Virus record (IMG/VR): IMGVR_UViG_3300003155_000137 | Span: 1 to 46,628 of that record | Origin: a virus | Lineage: Duplodnaviria; Heunggongvirae; Uroviricota; Caudoviricetes | DNA: 46,628 bases | Strand: one strand, 5' to 3' | Shown: positions 3,408 through 31,000 of the stretch, one piece after another | How positions within the stretch are numbered: the stretch's first letter is position 1 | Layout of the letters: every line of letters begins with the position of its first letter | Notes under the pieces: generated by a model | Seen by the model: the letters and a program-made list of their open reading frames with translations, nothing else | Database searches by the model: none | Told to the model about the DNA's origin: nothing | Position numbers and translations under genes: made by a program

Positions 3408-4544
3408 ATGAAGACCTACTGCCGCGATGTCCACATCGCCACCCCGAGCTTCGTGAGGAAGGCGATCGACAAGTACCTCAAGGGCAAGCGTTCAAGGCGC
3501 GATGTCCAGAGGTTCCTGGAGAAGAACCCGGACCTCGACGCGCTGGCCGAGAGGATCGCCTCGGAGATACGCGACGGCAGATTTCGTCATACGAAGATCA
3601 GGTACTTCAATCGCATCGAACCCATCAGCGGCAAGCACAGGATCATAGGCAGAGAGACAACACGCCACCAGATATACAATTATGTCGCCGTCACAGCGTT
3701 GCAGTCGGTGTTCGACGCCAAGATCGGAAGGTGGCAGACCGCGAGCATACCGGGAAGAGGAACCATCGACGCCCGCAAGGCCATCAAGAGATGGACGAGG
3801 GGACGCGATTGCAAATACTTCGTCAAGCTCGATGTCCGCAAGTACTATCCGTCGATAGACAGGGACACCCTGAAGGCCATTCTCGCCAAGGATGTGAGGA
3901 ACCCACAGCTTCTTAGGCTGGTGTATCATCTCATAGATCAGTATCAGGGGGATAACGGGCTCAACATAGGCAGCTATCTCAGCCAATGGCTCGCCAACTA
4001 CTATCTGTCGCCCGCCTACCACTTCTGCGAGAGCGGACTGACGACGGAACGTCACTGCCGCAACGGCGAGACGAAGACCAGAAGGCTCATCACCCATTTC
4101 CTGTTTTACATGGACGATATTCTTCTGGTCGGAAAATCCAAGAAGGACCTCAAGATGGCGGCGAGACGCCTGTCCAGGTTCCTCAAGGAGACGCTCAAGG
4201 TCGAGGTGCATCCTGAGTGGAGCGTCAAGTGGCTTGAACTCGAACCCATCAACATGGTGGGCTACGCATTCCGCAAGCATGGTCGCGTGAACATCCGCTC
4301 AGGCGTATTCCTGCGTGCGAGAAGGAACTTCAGGAGGATGGCGAAGCGTCCTTCCAGCATACTTCTGGCGAGACGTTGCGTGAGTTACTTCGGGTACTTC
4401 AAACACAGCGACAGCGTGATGTACAGGCGTCGCAACGACATCGACGGCATCATGCGCAAGGCCAGAAGACTGGTCAGTGTCTACAGTAGAAAGGAAAACA
4501 CATGTTGCAGGATGTCTCCAGCACCAGCCCTCTCTCCAAGGTAG
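3408..4544 (+). CDS. DGR reverse transcriptase
   Basis: KLDVRKYYPSI, GLNIGSYLSQWLANYYL and FYMDDILL motifs; 378 aa; adjacent to TR. Confidence 0.95.
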   Translation: MKTYCRDVHIATPSFVRKAIDKYLKGKRSRRDVQRFLEKNPDLDALAERIASEIRDGRFRHTKIRYFNRIEPISGKHRIIGRETTRHQIYNYVAVTALQSVFDAKIGRWQTASIPGRGTIDARKAIKRWTRGRDCKYFVKLDVRKYYPSIDRDTLKAILAKDVRNPQLLRLVYHLIDQYQGDNGLNIGSYLSQWLANYYLSPAYHFCESGLTTERHCRNGETKTRRLITHFLFYMDDILLVGKSKKDLKMAARRLSRFLKETLKVEVHPEWSVKWLELEPINMVGYAFRKHGRVNIRSGVFLRARRNFRRMAKRPSSILLARRCVSYFGYFKHSDSVMYRRRNDIDGIMRKARRLVSVYSRKENTCCRMSPAPALSPR

Positions 4545-6772: not shown

Positions 6773-7351
6773 TCACTCCCTGTACACGAACGGTTGCGAC
6801 TTCATGTTGTGCGACGTCAGGGTCGGTGCCAGTTCCGTCATGCGGCCGGCGTTCGTCTGCGTGTCCGCCTGACACATCACACGACCGTCCTGCCCCCCCC
6901 CATTGGCCGGATCGACCCAGACCAGCGGGCCGGGAGCTATCGGCTCAACGTCGTCCACGGTCGGTGGACGCCAAGGATGCACGCGCCGGTTATGTGTTCC
7001 GAACTCGACATCCACTATGCCATCGGCTATCCATGCCATCACGGGAACCGCCATCGAGTTACCGGTGGCCTTGTACCGCAGACCGTCCGGCGGATGATCC
7101 TTGCCCTTATACGGTATGTCGGTGTGTCCGTCGGGGAACCCCTGCAATCGCTCGGTCTCCAACGGGGTGAGTCGTCTCACCGTCAGCCTCGGGTCCATCC
7201 AATCACCTCCACAGTGTCGTCCATGCCCCCCCCCATCGGTGAAGAGGGTCTGCACGTTGCTCGTGCTGAGCGTTGCGCTCAATTCATGCTGTACGAGCGC
7301 TCCCTTGCCGCCTCCGGCCTTGCCGCACCTCACGAGCAACGTGTCGGCCAT
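6773..7351 (-). CDS. C5 cytosine methyltransferase, C-terminal part (motifs IX-X)
   Basis: VRRLTPLETERLQGFPD and RYKATGNSMAVPVM; own RBS GGAAGGA. Confidence 0.85.
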   Translation of the reverse strand: MADTLLVRCGKAGGGKGALVQHELSATLSTSNVQTLFTDGGGHGRHCGGDWMDPRLTVRRLTPLETERLQGFPDGHTDIPYKGKDHPPDGLRYKATGNSMAVPVMAWIADGIVDVEFGTHNRRVHPWRPPTVDDVEPIAPGPLVWVDPANGGGQDGRVMCQADTQTNAGRMTELAPTLTSHNMKSQPFVYRE

Positions 7352-7364
7352 TTCAGCATCCTTC

Positions 7365-7469
7365 CTACGCCGGCCACACGGCCGGCACCTTCTCCGTCTG
7401 CAACGTCGGTGACGTGTCGCCGATCGAGAGTCCGCAACCGGAACTGTTCTGCCTCCCGAACGCCATCAC
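7365..7469 (-). CDS. 34-aa mini-ORF resembling the methyltransferase variable-region repeats
   Basis: GAAAGG RBS 7 nt before GTG; MAFGRQNSSGCGLSIGDTSPTLQTEKVPAV resembles the PTL...AV repeats in both flanking ORFs. Confidence 0.45.
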   Translation of the reverse strand: MMAFGRQNSSGCGLSIGDTSPTLQTEKVPAVWPA

Positions 7470-7473
7470 ACGG

Positions 7474-8787
7474 TCACCTTTCACGACATCTTTCGGGTGG
7501 GGTTGGCATGAGCGCGACCGCGTGCCTGTCCCTCGTGTTGAGGGTGTACGCCCCGTTGTCGTCGGGGTCGGCGTAGCCGCGCCCTCCGGGTCCGTTGCCG
7601 GGGTCGCGGTCGATGGCGTTCCCCTGGATCTCCACGAGCCGTCCGCCGATGTCGGACAGTCCGTCATCCAGTCCACGGGGGGGGGTCTGGACGGAATCGG
7701 ACATGACCATCGGGACGTTGTTTCCGCCTGTTCCGGCGTGCGCCGTGATGGTCATCGACACGTCGGGCGTGTCCGACACCTTGGCCCTGCCGTCCTGCTG
7801 ATGGAAGTCCAATGCGACGTAGCTCTGCTGTTTCATGCCGGGATTCTCGGCCAACGCTCCGGGGACATCCATGACGGGAACCTCGTTGCGCTGATTCTGT
7901 GCGAACGCCACTGCGGTCGATACGGAAGTGTCCAGAGTGTTCATCACGTCGTCACGTTTGATTCCGAAACCGTTGGAGCCAGTGTTCGCCGTCTCGCACA
8001 GATAGATGCTCTGCTGGTTCTGCCCTGAGTTCGATCTCGCGGACAGCGCCGGGAAGACGCCATCGGAGGAATGCACGCGACGACTCTGGTTCTCGCCCGT
8101 GGTCAGGCATCCTCCGTCGTCGGTGTCTCCGTCTCTTCCTCCAGGACCGCTATCTGATTCTCCAGAGCGGCGCGAAGATTCTCCGGCAAGGGCTTTCCTC
8201 TTGTCTCGGCTCGACGAATAATCCCACGGCATGCCTTCGCGCTCAAATAATACTTCCGAGGAACGCATGGTTCCAAGGCTTCCGACAAGGAACAGACGCT
8301 CGCGTCGCTGGGCCACACCGAAGAACTGCGCATCCAGTACTCTCCATGCCAGACCATACCCGAGCGCGTCCATTTCGGACAGGAGTTGTCGGAAAGCGCC
8401 CCCGTGCTCGCTTGAGAGCGCGCCCGGGACGTTCTCCCAGACGAACCATCGAGGACGCACCTCACGAACGCATCGAATGTACTCGAACATGAGACCTGAT
8501 TCACCTTTGAGACCCTCCCTTTTTCCGGCCGTAGAGAATGACTGACATGGGCTACCTCCGAAAACGACGTCCACCTTGTCCACATACGGAGTCCAATCGA
8601 CCTTGGTGATGTCGCCAAGATTCGGGACATCAGGCCAATGGTACGCAAGAACCTCGGATGGGAACCTGTCGATCTCGCAGAAGGCCACCGGTTCCCAAGG
8701 CCCTCCATCAAGCGCCACCGAGACCGCCTCGATTCCGCTGAACAAGCTGATGTATCTCAATTTCCTGTTTTCCATGATGTCCATCAT
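7474..8787 (-). CDS. C5 cytosine methyltransferase, N-terminal part (motifs I-VIII plus repeats)
   Basis: SLFSGI, GGSPCQSFS, WENVPG, QRRERLFLVG. Confidence 0.92.
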   Translation of the reverse strand: MMDIMENRKLRYISLFSGIEAVSVALDGGPWEPVAFCEIDRFPSEVLAYHWPDVPNLGDITKVDWTPYVDKVDVVFGGSPCQSFSTAGKREGLKGESGLMFEYIRCVREVRPRWFVWENVPGALSSEHGGAFRQLLSEMDALGYGLAWRVLDAQFFGVAQRRERLFLVGSLGTMRSSEVLFEREGMPWDYSSSRDKRKALAGESSRRSGESDSGPGGRDGDTDDGGCLTTGENQSRRVHSSDGVFPALSARSNSGQNQQSIYLCETANTGSNGFGIKRDDVMNTLDTSVSTAVAFAQNQRNEVPVMDVPGALAENPGMKQQSYVALDFHQQDGRAKVSDTPDVSMTITAHAGTGGNNVPMVMSDSVQTPPRGLDDGLSDIGGRLVEIQGNAIDRDPGNGPGGRGYADPDDNGAYTLNTRDRHAVALMPTPPERCRER

Positions 8788-9987: not shown

Positions 9988-10185
9988 TCAGTCACCGGCC
10001 AATCCGGCTGCGGCGAACAGGGACAATATGCCCTCGAACACAGCCCAGCCATACGGGGCACCGGACTTCCACGTCACGACCATGATGCCGATGTCGATGA
10101 CTCCGCACACGACAAGCGTCAAGGCTTTCGCATACACCTTGTCACGGATAACGCCGTTCCGACCATCGGACGCACCCTTCATCAT
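9988..10185 (-). CDS. small membrane protein
   Basis: Two hydrophobic helices. Confidence 0.5.
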   Translation of the reverse strand: MMKGASDGRNGVIRDKVYAKALTLVVCGVIDIGIMVVTWKSGAPYGWAVFEGILSLFAAAGLAGD

Positions 10186-11395
10186 TCATCCTGCCCTTCC
10201 ATTCTTGTTCAGACCTGCTCTTTCTCGTTGGTCTGATGGTGGATTCCTGCTTCATCGAACGCCCTTGCGCCGCCACGGATGACGGCGTTCGGGAGGTTCC
10301 GCCCTCCACAGGCATGAGTTCGGGATAGTTCGCCATCCCTACATTCAGTATGTTCAACGCCGCGTTCATGTCCCTGTCCATGACAAGGCCGCATGAATCG
10401 CAGCGGTAGACGCGCTCCGACAGCGGCATCGGCCTCCTCTGTCCACAGTTGGAGCAGAGCTGGCTCGACGGATACCATCTGTCGATGCAACGGACGTCCG
10501 TCTTGTACGAGAGGATGGAACGGAACATGCGGAACCCGCAGTCCAACAGCCTCCTGGCGAGACGGTGGTTCTTCAGCATCCCGGAGACGTTGAGGCCCTC
10601 GACGAAGCAGACCCTGTTCCGGTCGGCGATCGTCCTTGTGGCCTTGTGAATCCAGTCAAGACGCTTGCATGCGGTATGATACTCGTACCGCGCCAGCCTT
10701 CTCTTGGCCTTCTCACGGTTCCTCGACCCGCGCTGCTTTCTGGACAGCGCCCTCTGAAGATGCCTCTTCCTCCGCTCCCTGTCGATGAGGGTGCGCGGGT
10801 TTGGGATGACCAGACCGTCGGAGCAGGTGGCCAGCGACTTGATGCCCATGTCTATCCCGACGACCCCATCGGCTTGGCTTTCGCCGGTGGAATCGGGGAC
10901 CTCACATGAAATCGAGACGAGCCACATATCCGCCCTTCTAGTGACGGTCGCCTCACAGATTTTTGTGGCGGAGTCGCGGTAGCGGAACGACTCGCACATC
11001 CTCAATCTCAGCCCCTTCGGAAGGGTGAGCCACTTGCCGTCGATCTTCACGACGCCTCCGTTCACGGTGAACGAGTCGTTGACGCCACGCTTGTGGAACC
11101 TCGGATGCCCGGCACGTCCAGCGAAGAAGTTCCTGAACGCCCTTTCGAGGTCTCTCGTGGCGTAGTCGTACACCCACTTCGATACCTCCGTGACGAATGG
11201 GTACTTCTCCCCCTTGATGGAGTTGAACCTCTTCCTGATACCGTATCGGTTCGGCTTGCCGCCATTCCTGTATTCAGTGTCCCACATGTCGAGGCACACG
11301 TTGTATGCGAGACGTGACACACCGGCCCACTGTCTGAGCAACGGTTCGGTCTTGTTGTTGACCCTAAGCCTCGTCTTGAACGTTCGCTGCATCAT
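10142..11395 (-). CDS. tnpB: TnpB RNA-guided endonuclease (IS607-type), no TnpA
   Basis: N-terminal helix region, GIDMG (RuvC-I D), VEGLNVSGM (E), SSQLCSNC..CDSC zinc ribbon, DRDMNAA (D); RBS GGAGGT. Confidence 0.92.
   Translation of the reverse strand: MMQRTFKTRLRVNNKTEPLLRQWAGVSRLAYNVCLDMWDTEYRNGGKPNRYGIRKRFNSIKGEKYPFVTEVSKWVYDYATRDLERAFRNFFAGRAGHPRFHKRGVNDSFTVNGGVVKIDGKWLTLPKGLRLRMCESFRYRDSATKICEATVTRRADMWLVSISCEVPDSTGESQADGVVGIDMGIKSLATCSDGLVIPNPRTLIDRERRKRHLQRALSRKQRGSRNREKAKRRLARYEYHTACKRLDWIHKATRTIADRNRVCFVEGLNVSGMLKNHRLARRLLDCGFRMFRSILSYKTDVRCIDRWYPSSQLCSNCGQRRPMPLSERVYRCDSCGLVMDRDMNAALNILNVGMANYPELMPVEGGTSRTPSSVAAQGRSMKQESTIRPTRKSRSEQEWKGRMNDEGCVRWSERRYP
10199..10350 (-). ncRNA. putative omegaRNA scaffold / element right end
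   Basis: GAAGCAGGAA motif, TCAGACC/GGTCTGA hairpin and terminal AGAATGG resembling the IS607 AGAACGG end; boundaries approximate. Confidence 0.45.
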
Positions 11396-11639
11396 CACCT
11401 CCGAAGTCGATGCCGGTGACCACATCCATGATGTGTTCGTCGTTCCTTTCCTGCTGCGAAATCGGGACGGTTATGGGAATCCGGTGCCGGTACATCCTCA
11501 CCAGCCACACATCGCTCTTGGTCCTGTCCACGAAGTTCATCGAACACAGGTCATCCATTGTGACGCCGACCTGATACGAGATCGATGCGAGCGAATCCCA
11601 GCCTTCGACCAGCGCCTTTCCGCCACCAAGGTATTTCAT
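11364..11639 (-). CDS. hypothetical protein overlapping tnpB start
   Basis: MKYLGGGKALVEGW...; no serine-recombinase or Y1 HUH motifs seen. Confidence 0.5.
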   Translation of the reverse strand: MKYLGGGKALVEGWDSLASISYQVGVTMDDLCSMNFVDRTKSDVWLVRMYRHRIPITVPISQQERNDEHIMDVVTGIDFGGDDAANVQDEA

Positions 11640-18657: not shown

Positions 18658-19389
18658 CTATTCGTTTTCCGTATATCCGTCGGTCAGAAATTCACTGAGC
18701 GTATGGCGATAATCAGCATGGTCATCGACGACCACATGGTCATCCCTTCCGCGAACGCGCATCCACACGATGTCAGCCACCAGCGGCGACGCGATGAGCC
18801 GCTCCATGCAGTCCCGGCACGGAGGGGCCGACACGCACACATCGAACAGCGTCGGCCCTTCATCGGACGGCATCATCGGAAGCCCTTCGAGACGGGCCTC
18901 GCCAATGATCTGTGAAAGCTCCGTGAGCAGATTCACCTCGGCATGGATCGACGGACAGTCCGAATAATCGGCCTTCCTCGATTCGCCACGGGCCCTCGGA
19001 CACACGAGACGGCAGTCCATGCACCCCACGGGGATGGTGTTGGTCGCCGTCACGACCGGAACGCCGGTTCCATGAACGACCGCAAAGGCACCGACGTTCT
19101 TGCGGTGGCACACGCCACGGCTGTCGGCGATGCGCTGTAGCTTGGTGAGCACCTGAACCATGCCGTCGGTCGTCACAGACTCCCCCCTCTTCCTGTCGCA
19201 CTCAGGGCAGTAGTCGGCTCCAAGCCCAGAATCCCCGGCCCAACGACGCCACCCGAAGTCATAGAGTGTGAACATCGTGTCGACTCCGAACGCATCAGGC
19301 GTACACATGTACGTCATCACCACGGGGGAGCGCAACCCGCACTCATCGCAGACGACGAACAGGCACGCATCGCTCAATTTCACCTTCAT
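18658..19389 (-). CDS. dCMP deaminase-like protein with N-terminal small zinc-finger domain (internal start possible at 19176/19161)
   Basis: C.RK.VGA, IHAEVNL and PPCRDC zinc-deaminase motifs. Confidence 0.8.
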   Translation of the reverse strand: MKVKLSDACLFVVCDECGLRSPVVMTYMCTPDAFGVDTMFTLYDFGWRRWAGDSGLGADYCPECDRKRGESVTTDGMVQVLTKLQRIADSRGVCHRKNVGAFAVVHGTGVPVVTATNTIPVGCMDCRLVCPRARGESRKADYSDCPSIHAEVNLLTELSQIIGEARLEGLPMMPSDEGPTLFDVCVSAPPCRDCMERLIASPLVADIVWMRVRGRDDHVVVDDHADYRHTLSEFLTDGYTENE

Positions 19390-19961
19390 TCCGAAACCTC
19401 GCTTCCCTTGCTGTGCAGGAAACCGTAGCGGTCATCAAGACACCGAACGGCATCCAGGCTGAGATCGATCAACGCTTTGGCCGATGTCGCGTCGCCTCCA
19501 TGATCGAACGTGATTCGCTCCATGAACTCCGCGTATCTCATGACGCTCCGCAGGATGATCTCGAACTCGGGTTCAAGCTCCGGAACCACATAGTCCTCGA
19601 CGACATATCCAAGACTGGTATCGCTGCATGGGGCGTACAGTGTGCCGATGTAGCACGGGTTGTCGGCCTTATCGTCGAACGACCATCTGCTGACCAGCGG
19701 AGGAAGCGCCCTGCCATCGATCTTCCTGATCTCACCGTCCCACAGAACCCGCCTGACATCAGGTGCCCCGAACAGGTTGAACTGGTCTTCAAGGCATGTC
19801 AGCGCCGCCCACCAGAACGGGTCTCCCTCATTGGCCATACGAGTTGCGTTGCGGTAGAGGTCGGTAACGTCCATAGCTATGCCGAGCAGCCACATATCCA
19901 GGAACGTCTCGATATCCTGTTTTCTGTCCATTCTGTCCAAGTGTCCTTTCATGCGGTTCAT
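19386..19961 (-). CDS. hypothetical protein
   Basis: 191-aa ORF directly after promoter. Confidence 0.55.
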   Translation of the reverse strand: MNRMKGHLDRMDRKQDIETFLDMWLLGIAMDVTDLYRNATRMANEGDPFWWAALTCLEDQFNLFGAPDVRRVLWDGEIRKIDGRALPPLVSRWSFDDKADNPCYIGTLYAPCSDTSLGYVVEDYVVPELEPEFEIILRSVMRYAEFMERITFDHGGDATSAKALIDLSLDAVRCLDDRYGFLHSKGSEVSE

Positions 19962-20022
19962 CCGACCGACGCTACCATCATAACGCCAATCGGATGAACC
20001 GCAAAATCGAGACGGCGAGTCG
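19953..20022 (-). promoter_or_regulatory. promoter with -10 box enclosed by a 13-bp inverted repeat
   Basis: TATGAT (19982-19977) between GCGGTTCATCCGA (19953-19965) and TCGGATGAACCGC (19990-20002); upstream CGACTCGCCGTCTCG. Confidence 0.65.
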
Positions 20023-20044
20023 CGTCATTGGACGATTTCACCGA

Positions 20045-20740
20045 TCATTCGGCGTCATCATTCAGATACTTCCAATGGCGCTCATAGATGTGGAGCGATG
20101 CGGCCTGCCAGATGATGTCTCCACGCTCGCACTCAACGCCGGCGTCATGAAGCCTGTCGATGACGCAGTCAAGACACCAGGACTGCCATGCCCAATCGTT
20201 CTTATAGCCGAAGACTACATCGAGGGAGCGCTGATTCACGATGGCATTCACCCTGCCGTCACGCAGATGGTATGTCACGGTGTTGGTGCACATGAAGTCG
20301 TGCATCCCGTCCTCCACGGCATCCGTGTGCATGGATGGACGGGTGTAGATGGCGATTGCCTGACGGGTCCCGTGGTCGTTCATGATGGCGTCGACGACAT
20401 GGTCGAGCTGGTTGAAGTTCTCCCCCGAGAGGACGCACCACCCATAGTTCGAGTTGATGCGCCCATGACGGGACGACACCTGCTGCCATATCTTCGGAAC
20501 CTTGCCCGGAATGTCATCGACGTATCTGGACATGGACAGATACCATTCGAGCTCACGTTCGATGTATTCGTTCGGCTTGCCGAAGATGGCCGGTTCGTCC
20601 GCGACGAACGAGACGCCGGTAAGCTCGATGGTTCCGTTGACCCTGTGGGTCCCGTCACGATACGCCTCGCGGAGCGCATCGCGGATGTCACTCACCCTTG
20701 GCAGCGTCAGCATCGCCATCCCCCTTGGCCTCGCATTCAC
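20045..20740 (-). CDS. thymidylate-synthase-family enzyme, dCMP hydroxymethylase-like (T4 gp42 type)
   Basis: DFMCTNTV.Y..RD...NA.V..RS.DVVFG..NDWAWQ and IIW...SLHIY; Asp at the position equivalent to E. coli TS Asn177. Confidence 0.8.
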   Translation of the reverse strand: MNARPRGMAMLTLPRVSDIRDALREAYRDGTHRVNGTIELTGVSFVADEPAIFGKPNEYIERELEWYLSMSRYVDDIPGKVPKIWQQVSSRHGRINSNYGWCVLSGENFNQLDHVVDAIMNDHGTRQAIAIYTRPSMHTDAVEDGMHDFMCTNTVTYHLRDGRVNAIVNQRSLDVVFGYKNDWAWQSWCLDCVIDRLHDAGVECERGDIIWQAASLHIYERHWKYLNDDAE

Positions 20741-21146
20741 CGATCAGCATATTCACGTAGTAGCGCATCCCCCCAACATCAAGGAATCTGAGGGAGTCGA
20801 AGAAGCCGGACATGGTGTCGTCGTCACGGCCGTCCCACGAATCCTCGACCGACGACACCGTCGTCGACCACTGCCTGAACGACGATCCGATGAGGGCGCA
20901 ATGCGTCGCGATGAGCGCGTTGAGCCCCGACGCCGTGACGCCCGACCTCATTGCATGGTCCAGATACCACAGGGCCTTCCTGAGGTCCTGAAGCTCATTC
21001 CACTTGCGTCCGTGCCGCCAAACGTACTTGACGGCGCATCCGAGATCGTTGGGCAGGACCGATACCACGTCGATGCACTCGACGCCGCTCGGGTCGGCCG
21101 TATACCAATCGGGATGATTCACTTCGTCGTTGAGTTCTTCCTTCAC
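20688..21146 (-). CDS. DUF3310-type protein
   Basis: VNHP.WY......ECID.......G.AVKY.WR.G.K....DL.KA.WYL. Confidence 0.8.
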   Translation of the reverse strand: MKEELNDEVNHPDWYTADPSGVECIDVVSVLPNDLGCAVKYVWRHGRKWNELQDLRKALWYLDHAMRSGVTASGLNALIATHCALIGSSFRQWSTTVSSVEDSWDGRDDDTMSGFFDSLRFLDVGGMRYYVNMLIGECEAKGDGDADAAKGE

Positions 21147-21511
21147 AGCTTCACCACCTGATTCCCATATCTCCTGTTGATTCTCGACACCATCTCCTGC
21201 CTCGTCTTGGTCAGGTACAGGACCCCGTCGCTGTTCCTCCTCGTCATGGATGAGATGATGCCCGGCAACGAGTCGGCGACCGTGACCGTATACAGGTCGG
21301 ACTCGCCGTCGATGTCGCTCTTGCCGACATCGACCAGGGCATATCCATCCTCAACCTCGAAGAGCCAGAGTTCGTTCCACCTGCCCTGCGACGAGTGGGC
21401 GTACCGGCCGGCGTCCCTCGAATCGACCCTGATGACGGGTTCGGAGTCGCCGAAGTCGTAGACGGTTCCGGTCGTGCTGTCCGTTATGCGCGTCATCATG
21501 CCTCCTTCCAA
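21143..21511 (-). CDS. hypothetical protein
   Basis: Operon-filling ORF. Confidence 0.55.
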   Translation of the reverse strand: MEGGMMTRITDSTTGTVYDFGDSEPVIRVDSRDAGRYAHSSQGRWNELWLFEVEDGYALVDVGKSDIDGESDLYTVTVADSLPGIISSMTRRNSDGVLYLTKTRQEMVSRINRRYGNQVVKL

Positions 21512-22428
21512 CTGTTCGGAACGACGAGGGGCTCGATCGGCCTCACCGTTCCCGAATCATCGAACTTCCTCCTGAACCCCCTGCCGGACTGTATGCGGTT
21601 CAGCTTATCGAACTCACACAGGCAGTTCTGCGTGTCCATGAGCGTCATGTCGTGGGTCACGCCATCGGCCTCCAGCTTCGGATGACCTCCGGCCATGAGC
21701 CACTCATGGATGACCGGGATATAGCCGTCATCGTTCAGGTCGGTCACGTCGTCGTTCGGGAAGATCCACTTCACGCCGCGCTTGGAGCCGGGTCCGGCCA
21801 CCACGCCGCGATTCTCGTACCTGTCGCATCCCGCCCTTCCGTAGCCGTAGTCGGTGACGATCTGCTGGGCCATGAACTTCCCGATGCGCGGTATCTCCAT
21901 GAGCACGGCCAACTGGTCGCGGAACCTGTCCTGCGACACGAAGCGCTCGAAGAACCCATTGGACACCAGCGACTCCATCTGTCCGGCGAGGAACGCCACG
22001 ATGCTCATGCCCTTGCCCTCGCGGCCGGTGGCCACGTTGTATGCCTGCGACGTGTGGATCATGATGCCGGAACCGTCGACCTCATGAAGCCAGTCGATGA
22101 TTGTGTCGTGCGTGGGGATGCCGAACCTCCCCACGGCCTCGGCCCATCCGTCGGCCCGGTTGGTCCTCCTGTACGCGAACGCCAACGCCGCGTCGTCCAC
22201 CTCCGACGTCCCCTCGGGCATCGAGTTCATCATCCTCACCATGAACTGCGATCCACGGTCGCACACCCTGAACACGTTGCAGAACCTGTGGCTGCGAAGC
22301 TCCTCGGATTCGGTCCAAGGCGGCTTCATCCCCGACACGCGCCTGTTGAGCATATCGGCACGCTCGCGCACATACCACCGGAACTTGTCAAGCTGTCCGG
22401 CGTCGGCGTCCCTTATGTCCATCGCCAT
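21496..22428 (-). CDS. 5-hmdU DNA kinase helical-domain-like (aGPT-Pplase1 family) DNA-modification protein
   Basis: F.WY..ER......R..G..PPWT....L..HRFCNVFR..DR.SQ, GPGS.RG and QN.LCEFDK motifs. Confidence 0.7.
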   Translation of the reverse strand: MAMDIRDADAGQLDKFRWYVRERADMLNRRVSGMKPPWTESEELRSHRFCNVFRVCDRGSQFMVRMMNSMPEGTSEVDDAALAFAYRRTNRADGWAEAVGRFGIPTHDTIIDWLHEVDGSGIMIHTSQAYNVATGREGKGMSIVAFLAGQMESLVSNGFFERFVSQDRFRDQLAVLMEIPRIGKFMAQQIVTDYGYGRAGCDRYENRGVVAGPGSKRGVKWIFPNDDVTDLNDDGYIPVIHEWLMAGGHPKLEADGVTHDMTLMDTQNCLCEFDKLNRIQSGRGFRRKFDDSGTVRPIEPLVVPNSWKEA

Positions 22429-25485: not shown

Positions 25486-27849
25486 TCAGCGGGTCTCCTC
25501 CCACCAGTCGCGGGTGGTGCCATCCGCCAACGTGACATGGCCGGTCTCGCCGCTCATGTGCTTGACGCGGTGCGAGATCTCCTCGTGACGGCCGTGCACC
25601 ATCGGACGCTGCACCGGGTTGCCCAGGTAGCCGCAGGTGCGCTTGGTCACGTTGCACTTGTCCGGGTCGGAGTTGCCGCACTCGGGGCACTTGAAGCCCT
25701 CGTCGGTGGGTTCGAAGTCGCCCTGGAACCCGCAGACGAAGCAGTGGTCGATCGGGGTGTTGGTGCCCAGGTAGCCGATGCCGATGTTGTAGGCGTAATC
25801 CCACACGGCTTCGAGCGCCTTCGGATTGTCCTGCATACAGGGGAACTCGCAGTAGTTGATGAAGCCGCCGGAGGCGTAATACGGGAAGTTCTTCTCGAAG
25901 TCCAGTTTCTCGAACGGGGTCGGCTGCAACCACACCGGATAGTGGAACGAGTTGGTGTAGAAGTCGTGGTCGGTCACGCCATCGACGACGCCGAAGCGTT
26001 CGCGGTCCATGCGGTTGAAGCGGTCGGTCAGTGACTCCGCAGGGGTTGAATACACCGAGTAGTGGTAGCCCTCATCACTCTCCCACCGCTTGCACAGCTC
26101 GTTCATGCGACGAACGATGGATAGGGCGAAACCCTTGCCATCCTCATCCCAATGGTGGTCGGTGATCCAGTCCTTGCCGTAGAAGACTGCGGTCGTCTCG
26201 TACAGCCCTATGTAGCCGAGCGATATGGTGGCCCTGCCGTCCCTGAAGAGGCTGTCCACGCCGTCTCCGGGGTCGAGACGCCCTATGGCACCGTAGCGGT
26301 ACATGCTCGGGGCGTTGACCGGAGTGGCCTGTTTGCAACGCATGATGCGGAACTGTAACGCTTGGTGCGCCACGTCCATGCGTTCGTCGAACAGTCTCCA
26401 GAACCGCTCCTTGTCGCCGTGCGACTCCAAGGCGATTCTGGGGAGGTTCACGCTCACCACACCGAGATTCAGACGCCCGTCCTCGACGTCCTCGCCGGTC
26501 TCGGGGTCGGCCCAAGCCTGAAGGAAGGAACGGCAGCCCATCGGGGCCTTGAAGGAGCCGGTGATTCTGACGATGTTCTCATAGAAGACGATGTCCGGAT
26601 ACATGCGCTTGGTGGAGCACTCAAGCGCCAACTGCTTCATGTCGTAGTTCGGGTCGCCGGGATCGGCGTTGATGCCGTGCCTGATTGTGAACACGAGCTT
26701 CGGGAAGATGGCGGTCTGATGATCGGAGCCGAGACCCATGATTCTGTTGAGGAATATCGCCCTCTGAATCTCCCTTGCGAACCACGAGGTTCCCAGGCCG
26801 AAGCCGACGGTAACGAACGGGGTCTGACCGTTGGAGACGCGGTTGGAGTTGATCTGGTACTCCATGGTCTGCATGGCGTCGTAGATGGCCTTGCGGGTCC
26901 TGAGCTTCGCATACACCTCCCTGATGTCGTCAAGCTCGTCATCGTTATGGTGGAACGGCGCGTCCTCTGATTCCGGTATGTCGGGGCGGCCATCAGTGAA
27001 ATGGAGCGCCTTGCGCTCGTTGCGCTTCAGCGATTCAACGATCTCACGGGCGACCCGAACGTCCATGTCATCGGGGATGACGGCATGTGCGTCCTCAAGG
27101 GCCTTCTCGTAGTCGAGGCGCGCGTAACGCTCCAGCATCTCGTCGGCGCGGTTCACGGTCTGGCCTCCGTACTGGCAACCGGCGATGTCCTTGATGATCT
27201 GCGTGATCTGCGTGGCGGCGGTGCCGATGGACTTCGGGGAGTCCATCATCGCGTTGCCCAGCGCGAAGCCGTGGGCGAGCATGTCGCCGAAGTTCGGCAG
27301 CGAGCAGTTCGTCTCGGCGGTGAACGGGGAGTAGTCGAGGTCGTGGAAGTGGATGTCGCCCTTCCTGTGGGCGTTGGCGACCGCCGTCGGGAGCATGTTG
27401 AGCGCCATCGCCTTGGACACCGTGCCGGCCAGCAGGTCGCGCTGGGTGGCGTAGACGTTGGAGTCCTTGTTGGCGTTCTCGTGGGCTATGGACTCATCGC
27501 GGTTCATGAATCGGCTGACGGCCTCGTTCACGTCGGTCGACCTCGCGCGGTCGATGTCCCTGTTCAGGCGGTACTGCGTGTAGGCCCTGGCCACATCATA
27601 CAGATGGTTGTCGATCAGCGCGTGCTCGACGAGGTTCTGGATGTCCTCTATCCTGATGGGTTCGGTGAACCTGCCCGACGCCTCCGACTCGACCTCGCCG
27701 GACATGTCGTCGATCATCCTTGATTCCTGCGGTCCGATCTCCCTGCCGAGATCGCGGAACGCCGACGATATCGCTCTCCTTATGTTGTCCCTGTCGAAGT
27801 CGACGATACGACCGTCGCGCTTCTCGACGCGCATGGCCTCTTCCGTCAT
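25486..27849 (-). CDS. nrdD: anaerobic (class III) ribonucleoside-triphosphate reductase
   Basis: N-terminal ATP cone (VEKRDG..VDFD...I..AI), IHFHDLDY, MGCRSFL, KRTCGYLG glycyl-radical motif, CFVC..CPEC zinc site; RBS GAAAGGA. Confidence 0.97.
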   Translation of the reverse strand: MTEEAMRVEKRDGRIVDFDRDNIRRAISSAFRDLGREIGPQESRMIDDMSGEVESEASGRFTEPIRIEDIQNLVEHALIDNHLYDVARAYTQYRLNRDIDRARSTDVNEAVSRFMNRDESIAHENANKDSNVYATQRDLLAGTVSKAMALNMLPTAVANAHRKGDIHFHDLDYSPFTAETNCSLPNFGDMLAHGFALGNAMMDSPKSIGTAATQITQIIKDIAGCQYGGQTVNRADEMLERYARLDYEKALEDAHAVIPDDMDVRVAREIVESLKRNERKALHFTDGRPDIPESEDAPFHHNDDELDDIREVYAKLRTRKAIYDAMQTMEYQINSNRVSNGQTPFVTVGFGLGTSWFAREIQRAIFLNRIMGLGSDHQTAIFPKLVFTIRHGINADPGDPNYDMKQLALECSTKRMYPDIVFYENIVRITGSFKAPMGCRSFLQAWADPETGEDVEDGRLNLGVVSVNLPRIALESHGDKERFWRLFDERMDVAHQALQFRIMRCKQATPVNAPSMYRYGAIGRLDPGDGVDSLFRDGRATISLGYIGLYETTAVFYGKDWITDHHWDEDGKGFALSIVRRMNELCKRWESDEGYHYSVYSTPAESLTDRFNRMDRERFGVVDGVTDHDFYTNSFHYPVWLQPTPFEKLDFEKNFPYYASGGFINYCEFPCMQDNPKALEAVWDYAYNIGIGYLGTNTPIDHCFVCGFQGDFEPTDEGFKCPECGNSDPDKCNVTKRTCGYLGNPVQRPMVHGRHEEISHRVKHMSGETGHVTLADGTTRDWWEETR

Positions 27850-27892
27850 ATGTCGTCCTTTCATTCGGTTCTGTTGTTGTCGGTAGAACCCA

Positions 27893-27965
27893 ATCTTATA
27901 TCCACCGAGGCACATCCGAAGTCGACCGGACGCATTCCGATGATGCCGACGACGGACTAGAATTG
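27893..27965. promoter_or_regulatory. divergent -10 boxes for nrdD and the large virion gene
   Basis: TAAGATTG on minus (27898-27891) and TAGAATTG on plus (27958-27965). Confidence 0.5.
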
Positions 27966-28007: not shown

Positions 28008-31000
28008 ATGAGCGAAGGGGTGTTTGTTTTGGCCGACATCTTCATCGGGGATACCTACGACTCACAATATTACGATGCGGTCGTGACACAGACCGACAAG
28101 GAGCGGCTGAAGACCAGGACGCAGGAGTGGATGTCGCGCCCGAGGGAGTCCGCGAGCTCGGTCGTCGAGATCCTCACATACGAGTTCGCGGACAGAGCGC
28201 CCATATCATCCATCGCGTTCGACGTCCTGTCCGTCGGTGCCGAGTATGAGATGTGGTACTACGATTCGGCCGGGACAAGGCTTCCGCTGCTGAGGGATGA
28301 CTACAACCAGATTCACTTCGTCGTGGAATCCGAAGAGGATTGGACGAGATGGCAGCACTGGGAGTTCCAGTGCATGGCGTGCGTGGCGACGAAGCTCGAG
28401 CTGAGGATGCGTCGCATCGACGACGATCTCGCCCCCGACAACGAGTACTCGCTCGGCGTGAGGAAGATGGCCATCAAGCGCCAGATCAATACGAGGGTGG
28501 ACGCGGCGCTGCCGTTGCAGGACACCACCGACATCCTCGGCAACATCGTGTCCAAGACCGTGTACGACTGGGATGCCAGATTCATGGCCGATGGCGAGGA
28601 CAACACGTTCTGGAAGTGCGAGCCGCAGATATCCCAGGATGCGGTCGTCTGCCTGTATCTCGACATCAGGGACAAATACGGCGAGCCGCAGTACTTCGAC
28701 TCGATCAACATCGACCCAGTCTACGCCGGTTCGCAGATGAACGTGTACTATTCCAACGACACCACGATGGGTGACCGCGTGCCGTCGCACTCATCGTATC
28801 CGGCGGCATACTCCGGATGCGAGTACACCACGGACAGCGCCACGGGCTGGAGGGACGGGGAGAATCCGCTCATCTCAACCGACCTGACGGCGGCCGAGAT
28901 GGACCTCGACGGAAGCTGGATGATAGGCGTGAGCTGGCTTCCGATGTCGCAGCCCTCCGGAACCACGACCATAGCGTCGATAGGCAGGAACTTCAGGCTC
29001 GACCTGAACGCCGACGATGGAAGACTCGAGTTCTGGTATCAGCATGACGGCGGGCTCGACCACATCGACATCGACATGCCGTGCGACGTCAAATACAGGC
29101 GCGGACTGCCGCAGGTGGACAACGTCGATTCCGAGATTCGCGTCGAGTTCGGCGTGGACAAAGGCGACGACGAACTCCTGCACATCAGGGTGAGGATGCT
29201 CAACTGGTACACGACGACCGGAGAGCTGATAGACCCGACCACCGACGACAAGCCGACCCACGAGGCCGGCGAGATCATCGACGACGAGACCGTGGTCAAG
29301 ACGGTCAGGACGGCCATGCAGATTTCCGCCATAGTTGACGGGGTGAAGAGCGGCGACGTGTCGGGCGCGTCGGTGAGGACGTTGTCGGATGGGATCGACA
29401 GCTCCACCGAGCTGGTGGTGGCCGGGCATTCATCCGTTGAGATACCGTTGTCGATACCGGAAGACATCGACCCGGTGTCGGGCGGCTATGACATCGACGT
29501 CGAACTGAACTACCGTACCGACGACGCCTATCTCGGAGGCGGCGAGCTCGTCATAGCCAATGGCGACGAGATCAAGAACGGATACACCTCATGGTGGTAC
29601 GGCACGCAGGGTGAGTCGCCATCAAGGATGAACATCGGCACCGACGGTCAGGTCACCAACTGGTTCCAGAACCCGGAGTTCTCGGCATCCGGCTCGTGGC
29701 AGCCGGACGAGACCACCGGAAACGGCACGGCCACGCTCACGGGCGGCTCGCTCAGGCTGAATGGGATGATCCGCGTCAGAAGCGTCGAGGCGTTGCCGTA
29801 TCAGGTCCCCGGAGGGCGGTACTACGTGTTTTCTGCGGTTCCCGAGTTCTCCGGCGTCGATTCGCTGTACAAGAGCTACTCGCTCTTCGTCTATGACGGG
29901 AGGAGCGAGACCTATGTGGCGTTCGCCGACGGTATGCCGGTTTCCGGCGGGAGGGTCGAACTGAGATTCTTCATGCCGGACGACCCATCGCTCATATCAT
30001 TGGGATTCGTCGGAGGCTCGGAATCCGGTGACGTTGTCACATGGCGCGACCCCATGCTGTGCGAGGCGGACGATTGGGCCACGCTTGAGAGTCACGGTGT
30101 CGACTACTTCTCCGGCGACACATACAGGCGGACCGGTGACGTCATAGAGCGCTACAGTCAGGAGCTCAACCCGAATCCGAGGAACAGAGAGGACCTTCCG
30201 CTCATCGGTGAGGTCGTGCATCCGTCGTTCTGCCAGAAACGCTCGTTCAACTCGGACATCGTCAAGATAAATCCGTATCTCAATACCTACGACATACCGC
30301 AGATCGACTGGTGGATACCGGCCAAGGGCGGCAGCTCGTTCACGTTCTCGTTCTGGTGCATATCGAGGAAGGCGTGGTCGCAGCTTCAGCCGGTCATGCT
30401 CGACACCAAGGGCAACATGTACTGGCCCGACCGTTACCAGTACTCGGAGGGCGAGGGTGGATGGCGGCTCGTGTACGCCCGCGTCTCCATACCATCCGAC
30501 CACGAGCCGGACATGATGACCTTCGGAATCTACGAAAGGGCGACCGATGCGTTCTCCTATCTTGGGGAGATGCATGTCTACGATAACTCGGCCGCGTTCG
30601 AGGAGCCGGAGCCATACACCGTGGCGTCGGCGTCAAGGAGATTCTCCGCATCGCTGTCGACCGGTTCGCTGTCGGGACTCAAGGTGCTGGTGAGGAACTC
30701 CGACGCCAATCCCATCTACGTCGAATCATGCTCGGTCAGGGCCGTTGCGAGACGTGTGTCGGACCTGCCGGACGCGACCGCATCGTTCTCGTGGACCCAC
30801 GGAACGCTGAGGAACGTCGTGGTCAAGCAGGAGGGCATCCCGGACGAGGACAGGGACAGGTTCCTTCAGAATCCCGACATCTACACGTCACCGGACTCAT
30901 ACGACGTCTCATCGACATTGTTCAACGCCCTGCTGTACGGAAGGTTCTCGTATGAGCAGACGCTGAGGGGAGGGGTGGCCGACTCCGCATTCGACGCCAA

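Follow-up and report, generated by a model that had tools for sequence, protein, structure and literature searches.

A dCMP hydroxymethylase-type enzyme paired with a stand-alone aGPT-Pplase1 protein in a phage genome with no detected DNA kinase or glycosyltransferase partner

Which modified base would be made by a phage locus in which a thymidylate synthase-like enzyme stands together with a protein of the aGPT-Pplase1 family (hereafter Pplase1)? The locus (18658-22428, minus strand) lies in a stretch of 46,628 nucleotides, the window. This stretch opens the genome of a large uncultured phage (IMGVR_UViG_3300003155_000137; 137,417 bp), which is complete by CheckV estimate and classed as linear. 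An earlier note, made from the window's letters, had read the pair as a possible route to phosphorylated or further derivatised 5-hydroxymethylcytosine (hmC). Here, we report that the thymidylate synthase-like enzyme very probably makes 5-hydroxymethyl-dCMP (hm-dCMP), that its partner lacks the kinase motif, and that phospho-hmC is unsupported. For Pplase1 we tentatively propose the removal of the hydroxyl group from hydroxymethyl bases in DNA. The families of the parts are known. What is new, and not described in the literature that we found, is that a dCMP hydroxymethylase and Pplase1 stand together without a detected kinase or sugar transferase. The two principal genes are the following.

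21496..22428, minus strand: stand-alone aGPT-Pplase1 (PF18723 HMUDK_hel), 310 aa, Pfam E = 1.7e-34
20045..20713, minus strand: predicted T4 gp42-type dCMP hydroxymethylase, 222 aa; start set by homology, the open reading frame (ORF) being open from 20740

The enzyme at 20045-20713 belongs to the ThyA family (PF00303, E = 2e-14), and phmmer matches it to T4 dCMP hydroxymethylase (1b49) with an E-value of 1.3e-66, compared with 3e-5 or worse for true ThyA. dCMP hydroxymethylases are marked by Asp at the position of ThyA Asn177 and an acidic residue at that of Leu143, and the RB69-type hydroxylases share both marks (PMC13326640). Here the two positions are D173 and D139, and the motif RSLDVVFGYKND has Asp at the position of T4 Asp179. 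The equivalents of T4 E60, S94, D145, C148, D179, H216 and Y218 are all kept, the catalytic C142 and E54 (numbered from 20713) aligning with Cys148 and Glu60 of 1b49. In a FastTree phylogeny the enzyme forms a clade with T4-like gp42 (support 0.90) that excludes the dUMP hydroxymethylases found in M6, SP10, Montesquieu and LuckyBarnes, and it is ~55% identical to T-even gp42 across residues 37-228. Judged by these comparisons, the enzyme very probably produces hm-dCMP, and the earlier prediction of a dCMP-type enzyme with this product is supported by the diagnostic Asp, the match to 1b49 and the place in the gp42 clade.

The Pplase1 protein matches PF18723 nearly full-length (residues 13-280 of 310; 120 bits against a cut-off of 25) and contains no other domain. 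It keeps the family motifs FCNVxRxxD, RxxN, GPGSxRG and QNxLCEFDK together with the invariant columns, and C271 and E272 occur in every one of 317 sequences. Its assignment to the helical family of the 5-hydroxymethyldeoxyuridine (5-hmdU) DNA kinases therefore stands, but the label "kinase-type" given to it earlier does not, as the match is to the helical domain only. The 5-hmdU kinases are P-loop proteins, and in SP10 the kinase domain is active in the absence of the C-terminal Pplase1 part (PMC8989533). No Walker A motif or P-loop is present in the window's protein, whereas M6 gp54 and SP10 gp186 have one each. A structure model (predicted local distance difference test, 91.7) matches the queuine salvage enzyme (Z score 10.0), the OGG/Nth glycosylases (Z score 8-8.7) and the Pplase2 protein PaMx11 gp46 (Z score 9.8; root-mean-square deviation 4.2; 217 residues aligned), with TM scores of 0.62-0.73 to models of the SP10, PhiW-14, RSL1 and Lucky3 proteins. 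Neither a PDB sequence search nor Foldseek returned a significant match for Pplase1, and hhalign against a Pplase2 gave a probability of 0.5%. In the model, the fold is that of a helix-hairpin-helix (HhH) glycosylase-like protein, and this fold and the missing P-loop rule out a kinase role for the PF18723 protein.

Profile searches of the whole genome found no match to the PF18748, PF18747 or PF18751 kinases, and tblastn of the genome with M6 gp54 and SP10 gp186N found nothing. The sole small P-loop kinase is an AAA_33 protein (95794-96282) similar to polynucleotide kinase; an RNA ligase is encoded as well. Together with a metallophosphoesterase-like protein (set at 95794-96282 and 126023-127673), these two likely form an RNA repair set. 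Because Pplase1 has no P-loop, the kinase families and tblastn matches are missing and the AAA_33 protein resembles polynucleotide kinase, phospho-hmC is unsupported, and the earlier proposal of a phosphorylated base was not borne out. The earlier note had also seen no glycosyltransferase in the window and had called for a look elsewhere for this enzyme and for an amino-acid:DNA transferase. Searches with PF20691, PF00535, PF00534 and local TAGT profiles, and with the transferase of a relative as query, found no glycosyltransferase anywhere in the genome, the window included, and the profile PF18724 (Pplase2, amino-acid:DNA transferase) matched neither the Pplase1 protein nor any other part of the genome. 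One match to the relative's transferase (E = 0.009, 29847-30068) lies antisense within a virion gene and contains a stop, and we regard it as noise. No dCTPase was found in the genome with PF08761 or PF01503 (dUTPase_2, MazG/PRA-PH), which leaves room for a novel fold, and no donor-synthesis or tailoring gene, including pyridoxal phosphate (PLP) and radical S-adenosylmethionine (rSAM) enzymes, was found in it. Among about 100 further ORFs scanned with Pfam and PHROG, no partner appeared among the best 25 families listed, and since several ORFs have no family, a novel partner is possible.

How much of the cytosine would be replaced? C-containing 6-mer palindromes occur in the window phage at 0.58 of expectation (1280 against 2216 expected; controls 1.02 and 1.01), the ratio being 0.87-0.92 at T4-like gp42 loci and 0.44 for M6; CTGCAG is absent against 22 expected and TGATCA against 19. 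Throughout the genome, ACGCGT, AAGCTT, GGCGCC and TTCGAA are, like these two, among many 6-bp palindromes that are nearly absent, and CTAG and GATC are avoided. As no dCTPase was found and palindrome avoidance is strong, probably only part of the cytosine is substituted, in agreement with the partial substitution suggested earlier from the co-occurring C5 methyltransferase. A small relative (L009) has a dCTPase, whereas none was found in the window phage.

The two principal genes belong to a minus-strand run of coupled genes in the order Pplase1, a 118-aa protein, DUF3310, the ThyA-family enzyme, a 191-aa protein and the deaminase. The frames are intact across 18658-22428, and ATGA/GTGA overlaps from gene to gene indicate translational coupling. 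The four genes named earlier lie on the minus strand at the positions given for them, and each matched its Pfam family. A promoter was looked for and none was found. The remaining genes of the run, and a methyltransferase given for context, are as follows.

21143..21499, minus strand: protein of ~118 aa, no known family; ATGA overlap with the Pplase1 stop; homologues in the clade
20688..21146, minus strand: DUF3310 protein, candidate T7 gp1.7-like nucleotide kinase; PF11753 E = 3.9e-9, PHROGs "nucleotide kinase" E = 5e-22
19386..19961, minus strand: 191-aa protein, no known family, between hydroxymethylase and deaminase
18658..19389, minus strand: dCMP deaminase; PF00383 E = 1e-4, phrog_174 E = 3e-5, zinc motifs
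6773..8787, minus strand: split C5 cytosine methyltransferase, 10 kb off; PF00145 in two ORFs, best E = 2e-44

The deaminase scores 22.5 bits with PF00383, below the cut-off of 25, and has intact zinc motifs of the HxE and PCxxC types (HAE149, PPCRDC189). Its N-terminus has an extra Cys-rich ~70 aa that is missing in relatives and is perhaps a fused small upstream gene. Homologues lie downstream of the hydroxymethylase in relatives. The deaminase had been said to argue equally for a dUMP-directed route, but T4 encodes both gp42 and the dCMP deaminase Cd (PMC2993671) and most gp42-type loci that we fetched have a deaminase, so it is no sign of such a route; by analogy with T4, it would be an ordinary member of a dCMP hydroxymethylase pathway. 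The DUF3310 protein, in which only the 60-residue domain matches, may be a candidate dNMP kinase for hm-dCMP, DUF3310 having been linked to the T7 gp1.7 nucleotide kinase (PMC9339283). The domain is present in 97 of 205 loci, but it is frequent, too, in phages that have no connection with this cluster. Homologues of the ~118-aa protein adjoin Pplase1 or lie just downstream of it clade-wide (L001, L003, L005, L006, L008, L011, L046, L129), and an Atlas search with this protein gave no usable match. The 191-aa protein had no match in Pfam, PHROG or NCBIfam, and a similar protein occupies the equivalent position in L003. The window also encodes a reverse transcriptase (3408-4544), a TnpB-like protein (10142-11425) and the anaerobic ribonucleotide reductase NrdD (25486-27915).

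The same genes, joined by a TAGT-like GT-A glycosyltransferase and a DUF4406 gene, are found in the close large phages L001 and L214 and in the more distant L005, L006, L008, L011, L046 and L129. TAGT-type enzymes glycosylate hmC in DNA (10.1101/2023.12.21.572611). The transferase of the sister phages L001, L214, L005, L006, L008, L011 and L046 is PF20691-like as in the TAGT/JGT-like GT-A clusters of that study, in which hmC comes from a methyltransferase and TET, and not from a ThyA homologue as here. Both additional genes are missing from the cluster in the window phage and L003. In the Pplase1 tree these two are sister tips surrounded by transferase carriers (support 0.98), and this placement points to a loss of the glycosyltransferase in their lineage. 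Since the relatives carry the enzyme inside this cluster, the ancestral product was probably glycosyl-hmC. The earlier statement that the product is not classical glucosyl-hmC thus fits this phage, which has no glycosyltransferase, but overlooked the in-cluster transferase of its relatives. The locus is a mosaic, with 71% DNA identity to L003 in the Pplase1-to-DUF3310 block and 83% to L001 in the hydroxymethylase. A deletion scar fusing DUF3310 to the end of DUF4406 was considered and rejected, as the shared C-terminal letters merely reflect the overlap with the hydroxymethylase start, and mosaicism fits better. In the lineage without the glycosyltransferase, the dN/dS of Pplase1 is 0.23-0.38 (0.24/1.04 against L003 and 0.27/0.72 against L217), indicating purifying selection, and therefore Pplase1 is useful without the transferase. 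The DUF4406 gene, nucleoside-deoxyribosyltransferase-like (L001:12938-13360 and relatives), is present or absent jointly with TAGT and may clear a hydroxymethyl nucleotide. L008:7782-12772 contains two Pplase1 paralogues and two tandem TAGT-like transferases.

To which pathway is Pplase1 tied? In a sample of 137 non-redundant copies, biased to the best matches of the window's Pplase1, the fetched DNA of 97 includes a ThyA homologue (82 of the dUMP-hydroxymethylase type, 13 of the dCMP type and two unassigned). The local profile used in this survey missed TAGT in Luna18 and Pajaza, where Pfam found it, and was blind to PF18748, so that both are undercounted. Of 19 near-complete viral records with Pplase1, four have PF18748, three others have PF18751 and 12 have neither. 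Because of these two counts, 97/137 and 12/19, Pplase1 appears from gene content to be tied to hydroxymethyl-pyrimidine synthesis and not to a kinase. Its pairing with a dCMP-type hydroxymethylase is seen twice in the tree, in the window clade and in the cultured Microbacterium phages of cluster EA (BouleyBill, Luna18, Pajaza, Koji), whose Pplase1 forms a separate branch and is accompanied by MazG and either TAGT or the PF18751 kinase. In Bandik, a further cultured Microbacterium phage, Pplase1 was not detected.

In BouleyBill (PQ114747; L041:1357-5179) an Asp-type thymidylate synthase homologue and Pplase1 adjoin a PF18751 P-loop kinase, of a family found in Montesquieu's thymine-hypermodification cluster, and no TAGT was detected in the 14.8 kb fetched; this phage may be a better candidate for phospho-hmC than the window phage. 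The gp42-like enzyme is annotated only as thymidylate synthase in 191 Microbacterium phage records. All four Microbacterium phages examined (including L211, L212 and L213) have the dCMP-selecting Asp and MazG, with a glycosyltransferase nearby in three of them. Cluster EA phages probably have modified cytosine, judging from these genes, and the literature searched holds no report on their DNA chemistry. Two distant homologues were also observed. The 795-aa ORF233c of Aeromonas phage 31 (L218:10184-12571), whose gene adjoins a sodium:solute symporter gene, has a C-terminal divergent Pplase-like fold (TM score 0.68 to our model; PF18723 E = 0.004); its phage group is known to have gp42 and no glucosyltransferase. 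A 37%-identical homologue lies in an apparent bacterial chromosome (L004:1052-8650), where its neighbours are GmrSD_C, a gene resembling Apyc1 and an operon of the Cas9/Cas1/Cas2 type. The region fetched contains no hydroxymethylase, and a role in defence is possible.

What, then, could Pplase1 do? Virions of SP10, PhiW-14, M6 and ViI contain no 5-hydroxymethyluracil (hmU), the non-hypermodified remainder becoming thymine before packaging (PMC8989533), and in the literature searched no enzyme is assigned to this conversion. All four phages encode Pplase1, and SPO1, which keeps hmU, does not encode an aGPT-PPlase (PMC5889632). In M6 lysates, the kinase and Pplase2 suffice for hypermodification (a glycine adduct) without gp55, the Pplase1 protein, and therefore Pplase1 does something else. 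In Pplase2 a conserved Cys is essential, and borohydride trapping of the intermediate gives thymidine. The Pplase1 motif Q-N-x-L-C271-E-F-D-K can be aligned with E243-T244-x-L-C247-K-W-K in M6 gp51, and from this alignment of the invariant Cys and the similar fold we infer an attack on C6. We therefore consider the following scheme. The gp42-type enzyme would turn dCMP into hm-dCMP, a well-supported step, and, as in T4, the deaminase would supply dUMP for thymidylate synthesis by the host. DUF3310 and/or host kinases may then produce hm-dCTP, which would compete with dCTP and place hmC at only part of the C positions. In the least certain step, Pplase1 would flip out the hydroxymethyl base in DNA, Cys271 would add to C6, and the hydroxyl would be expelled as water to leave an exocyclic methylene, which a hydride donor of the cell would reduce. 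The products would be thymine in hmU phages and, in the window phage, 5-methylcytosine (5mC), by a post-replicative route independent of S-adenosylmethionine. In relatives, the TAGT glycosyltransferase would sugar part of the hmC first, a branch lost in the window lineage; neither phospho-hmC nor glucosyl-hmC would be expected in the window phage. We hold the whole scheme, with hydroxyl removal by Pplase1, to be a possible but tentative reading. The more specific claim that Pplase1 is the enzyme behind the phage hmU-to-thymine conversion, recoupled in this clade to a dCMP hydroxymethylase for conversion of hmC to 5mC in DNA, is slightly more doubtful.

Several points weigh against hydroxyl removal. 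No activity of Pplase1 is published in the literature searched. Pplase2 depends on phosphate as leaving group and on a metal whose ligands are E243/T244, positions that are Q/N in Pplase1. The motif match of C271 to C247 is not statistically significant and rests on fold similarity, and no hydride donor or reductase partner was identified. The ViI homologue gp160 was part of a five-lysate reconstitution, and the available part of that account does not remark on hmU-to-thymine conversion. Finally, the palindrome avoidance may predate the cluster, and it is also strong in M6.

Of the alternatives, the one that survives best, although we think it unlikely, is that the phage has plain partial hmC and that Pplase1 makes no new base but binds hydroxymethyl-DNA or serves in repair or quality control; in the second case it could be an HhH glycosylase for the hmU:G pairs left by deamination of hmC, or a nucleotide hydrolase resembling the queuine salvage enzyme. 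The top fold matches are indeed base-excising hydrolases and glycosylases, the bacterial homologue lies in the defence-like region with GmrSD_C and the Cas operon, and the relatives carry the DUF4406 gene, whose family type includes the hydroxymethyl-nucleotide hydrolases MilB and DNPH1. However, a glycosylase acting on hmU would do harm in the 82 loci of the hmU type, an invariant Cys-Glu pair is not known to be typical of HhH glycosylases, and the loss of hmU from virions would be left unexplained. Less probable again is a kinase-independent transferase, in which activation of C6 by the Cys would let a host nucleophile (amine, thiol or amino acid) be placed onto hmC in an undescribed hypermodification. 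Pplase1 resembles Pplase2 in its fold and, going by the motif, in its Cys, and C5 methyltransferases are able to couple thiols to hmC that has not been activated. SP10 has glutamyl-thymine with only a kinase-fused Pplase1 and no Pplase2 detected (PMC5889632). Such a role is countered by the M6 adduct, which forms without Pplase1, and by the lack of a detected donor-synthesis or tailoring gene in the genome.

Phosphorylation of hmC in DNA, perhaps with further changes, by the PF18723 protein or an unrecognised kinase would find a parallel in BouleyBill, where dCMP-type enzyme, Pplase1 and PF18751 kinase co-occur, and a conceivable agent in the AAA_33 protein; the kinase searches, and the likeness of that protein to polynucleotide kinase in a genome with an RNA ligase, make it very improbable. 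A different product of the thymidylate synthase-like enzyme (hmU or dTMP from dUMP, or 5-hydroxy- or 5-methyl-dCMP made directly) is no more credible: most Pplase1 loci are of the hmU type and the RB69-type hydroxylases have the same two diagnostic residues, but the Asp179 equivalent, the identity to T-even gp42 and the placement among T4-like gp42 argue otherwise. That the cluster is a relic decaying after glycosyltransferase loss, as the missing TAGT, DUF4406 and dCTPase genes and the strong palindrome avoidance might suggest, is highly improbable given the intact coupled frames, dN/dS values of 0.16-0.38 and the 90% clusters of the two proteins, with 92 and 82 members.

Compared with the T4 hmC pathway (gp42, gp1 kinase, gp56 dCTPase, Cd and alpha/beta-glucosyltransferases), the window phage has a gp42 orthologue with the catalytic set and a dCMP deaminase in common. 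It differs in having no detected dCTPase or glucosyltransferase, in its DUF3310 gene within the cluster, in its strong palindrome avoidance and in Pplase1, which T4 lacks. With the thymidine-hypermodifying phages M6, ViI, PhiW-14, SP10 and PaMx11 (PMC5889632, PMC8989533) it shares a Pplase1 homologue (M6 gp55, ViI gp160, SP10 gp186C) near a hydroxymethylase and a dCMP deaminase, but its hydroxymethylase is of the dCMP type and no 5-hmdU DNA kinase, Pplase2/amino-acid:DNA transferase, PLP or rSAM tailoring enzyme accompanies it.

Pplase1 is a large family, with 5,956 representatives at 50% identity, and its Pfam name mislabels it as part of a kinase. In the window phage its context is cut down to the hydroxymethylase, DUF3310 and the deaminase, so that kinase- or sugar-dependent roles of Pplase1 would be ruled out here and the phage is a minimal natural test case for what the family does. 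If Pplase1 does not reduce hydroxymethyl bases, the locus would be an ordinary partial-hmC anti-restriction cluster of a phage. If it does, the presence of thymine in place of hmU in hypermodifying phages would be explained, the step in the window phage would be an enzymatic reversal of hmC to 5mC, and epigenetic mapping would gain a useful enzyme that works on hmC in DNA.

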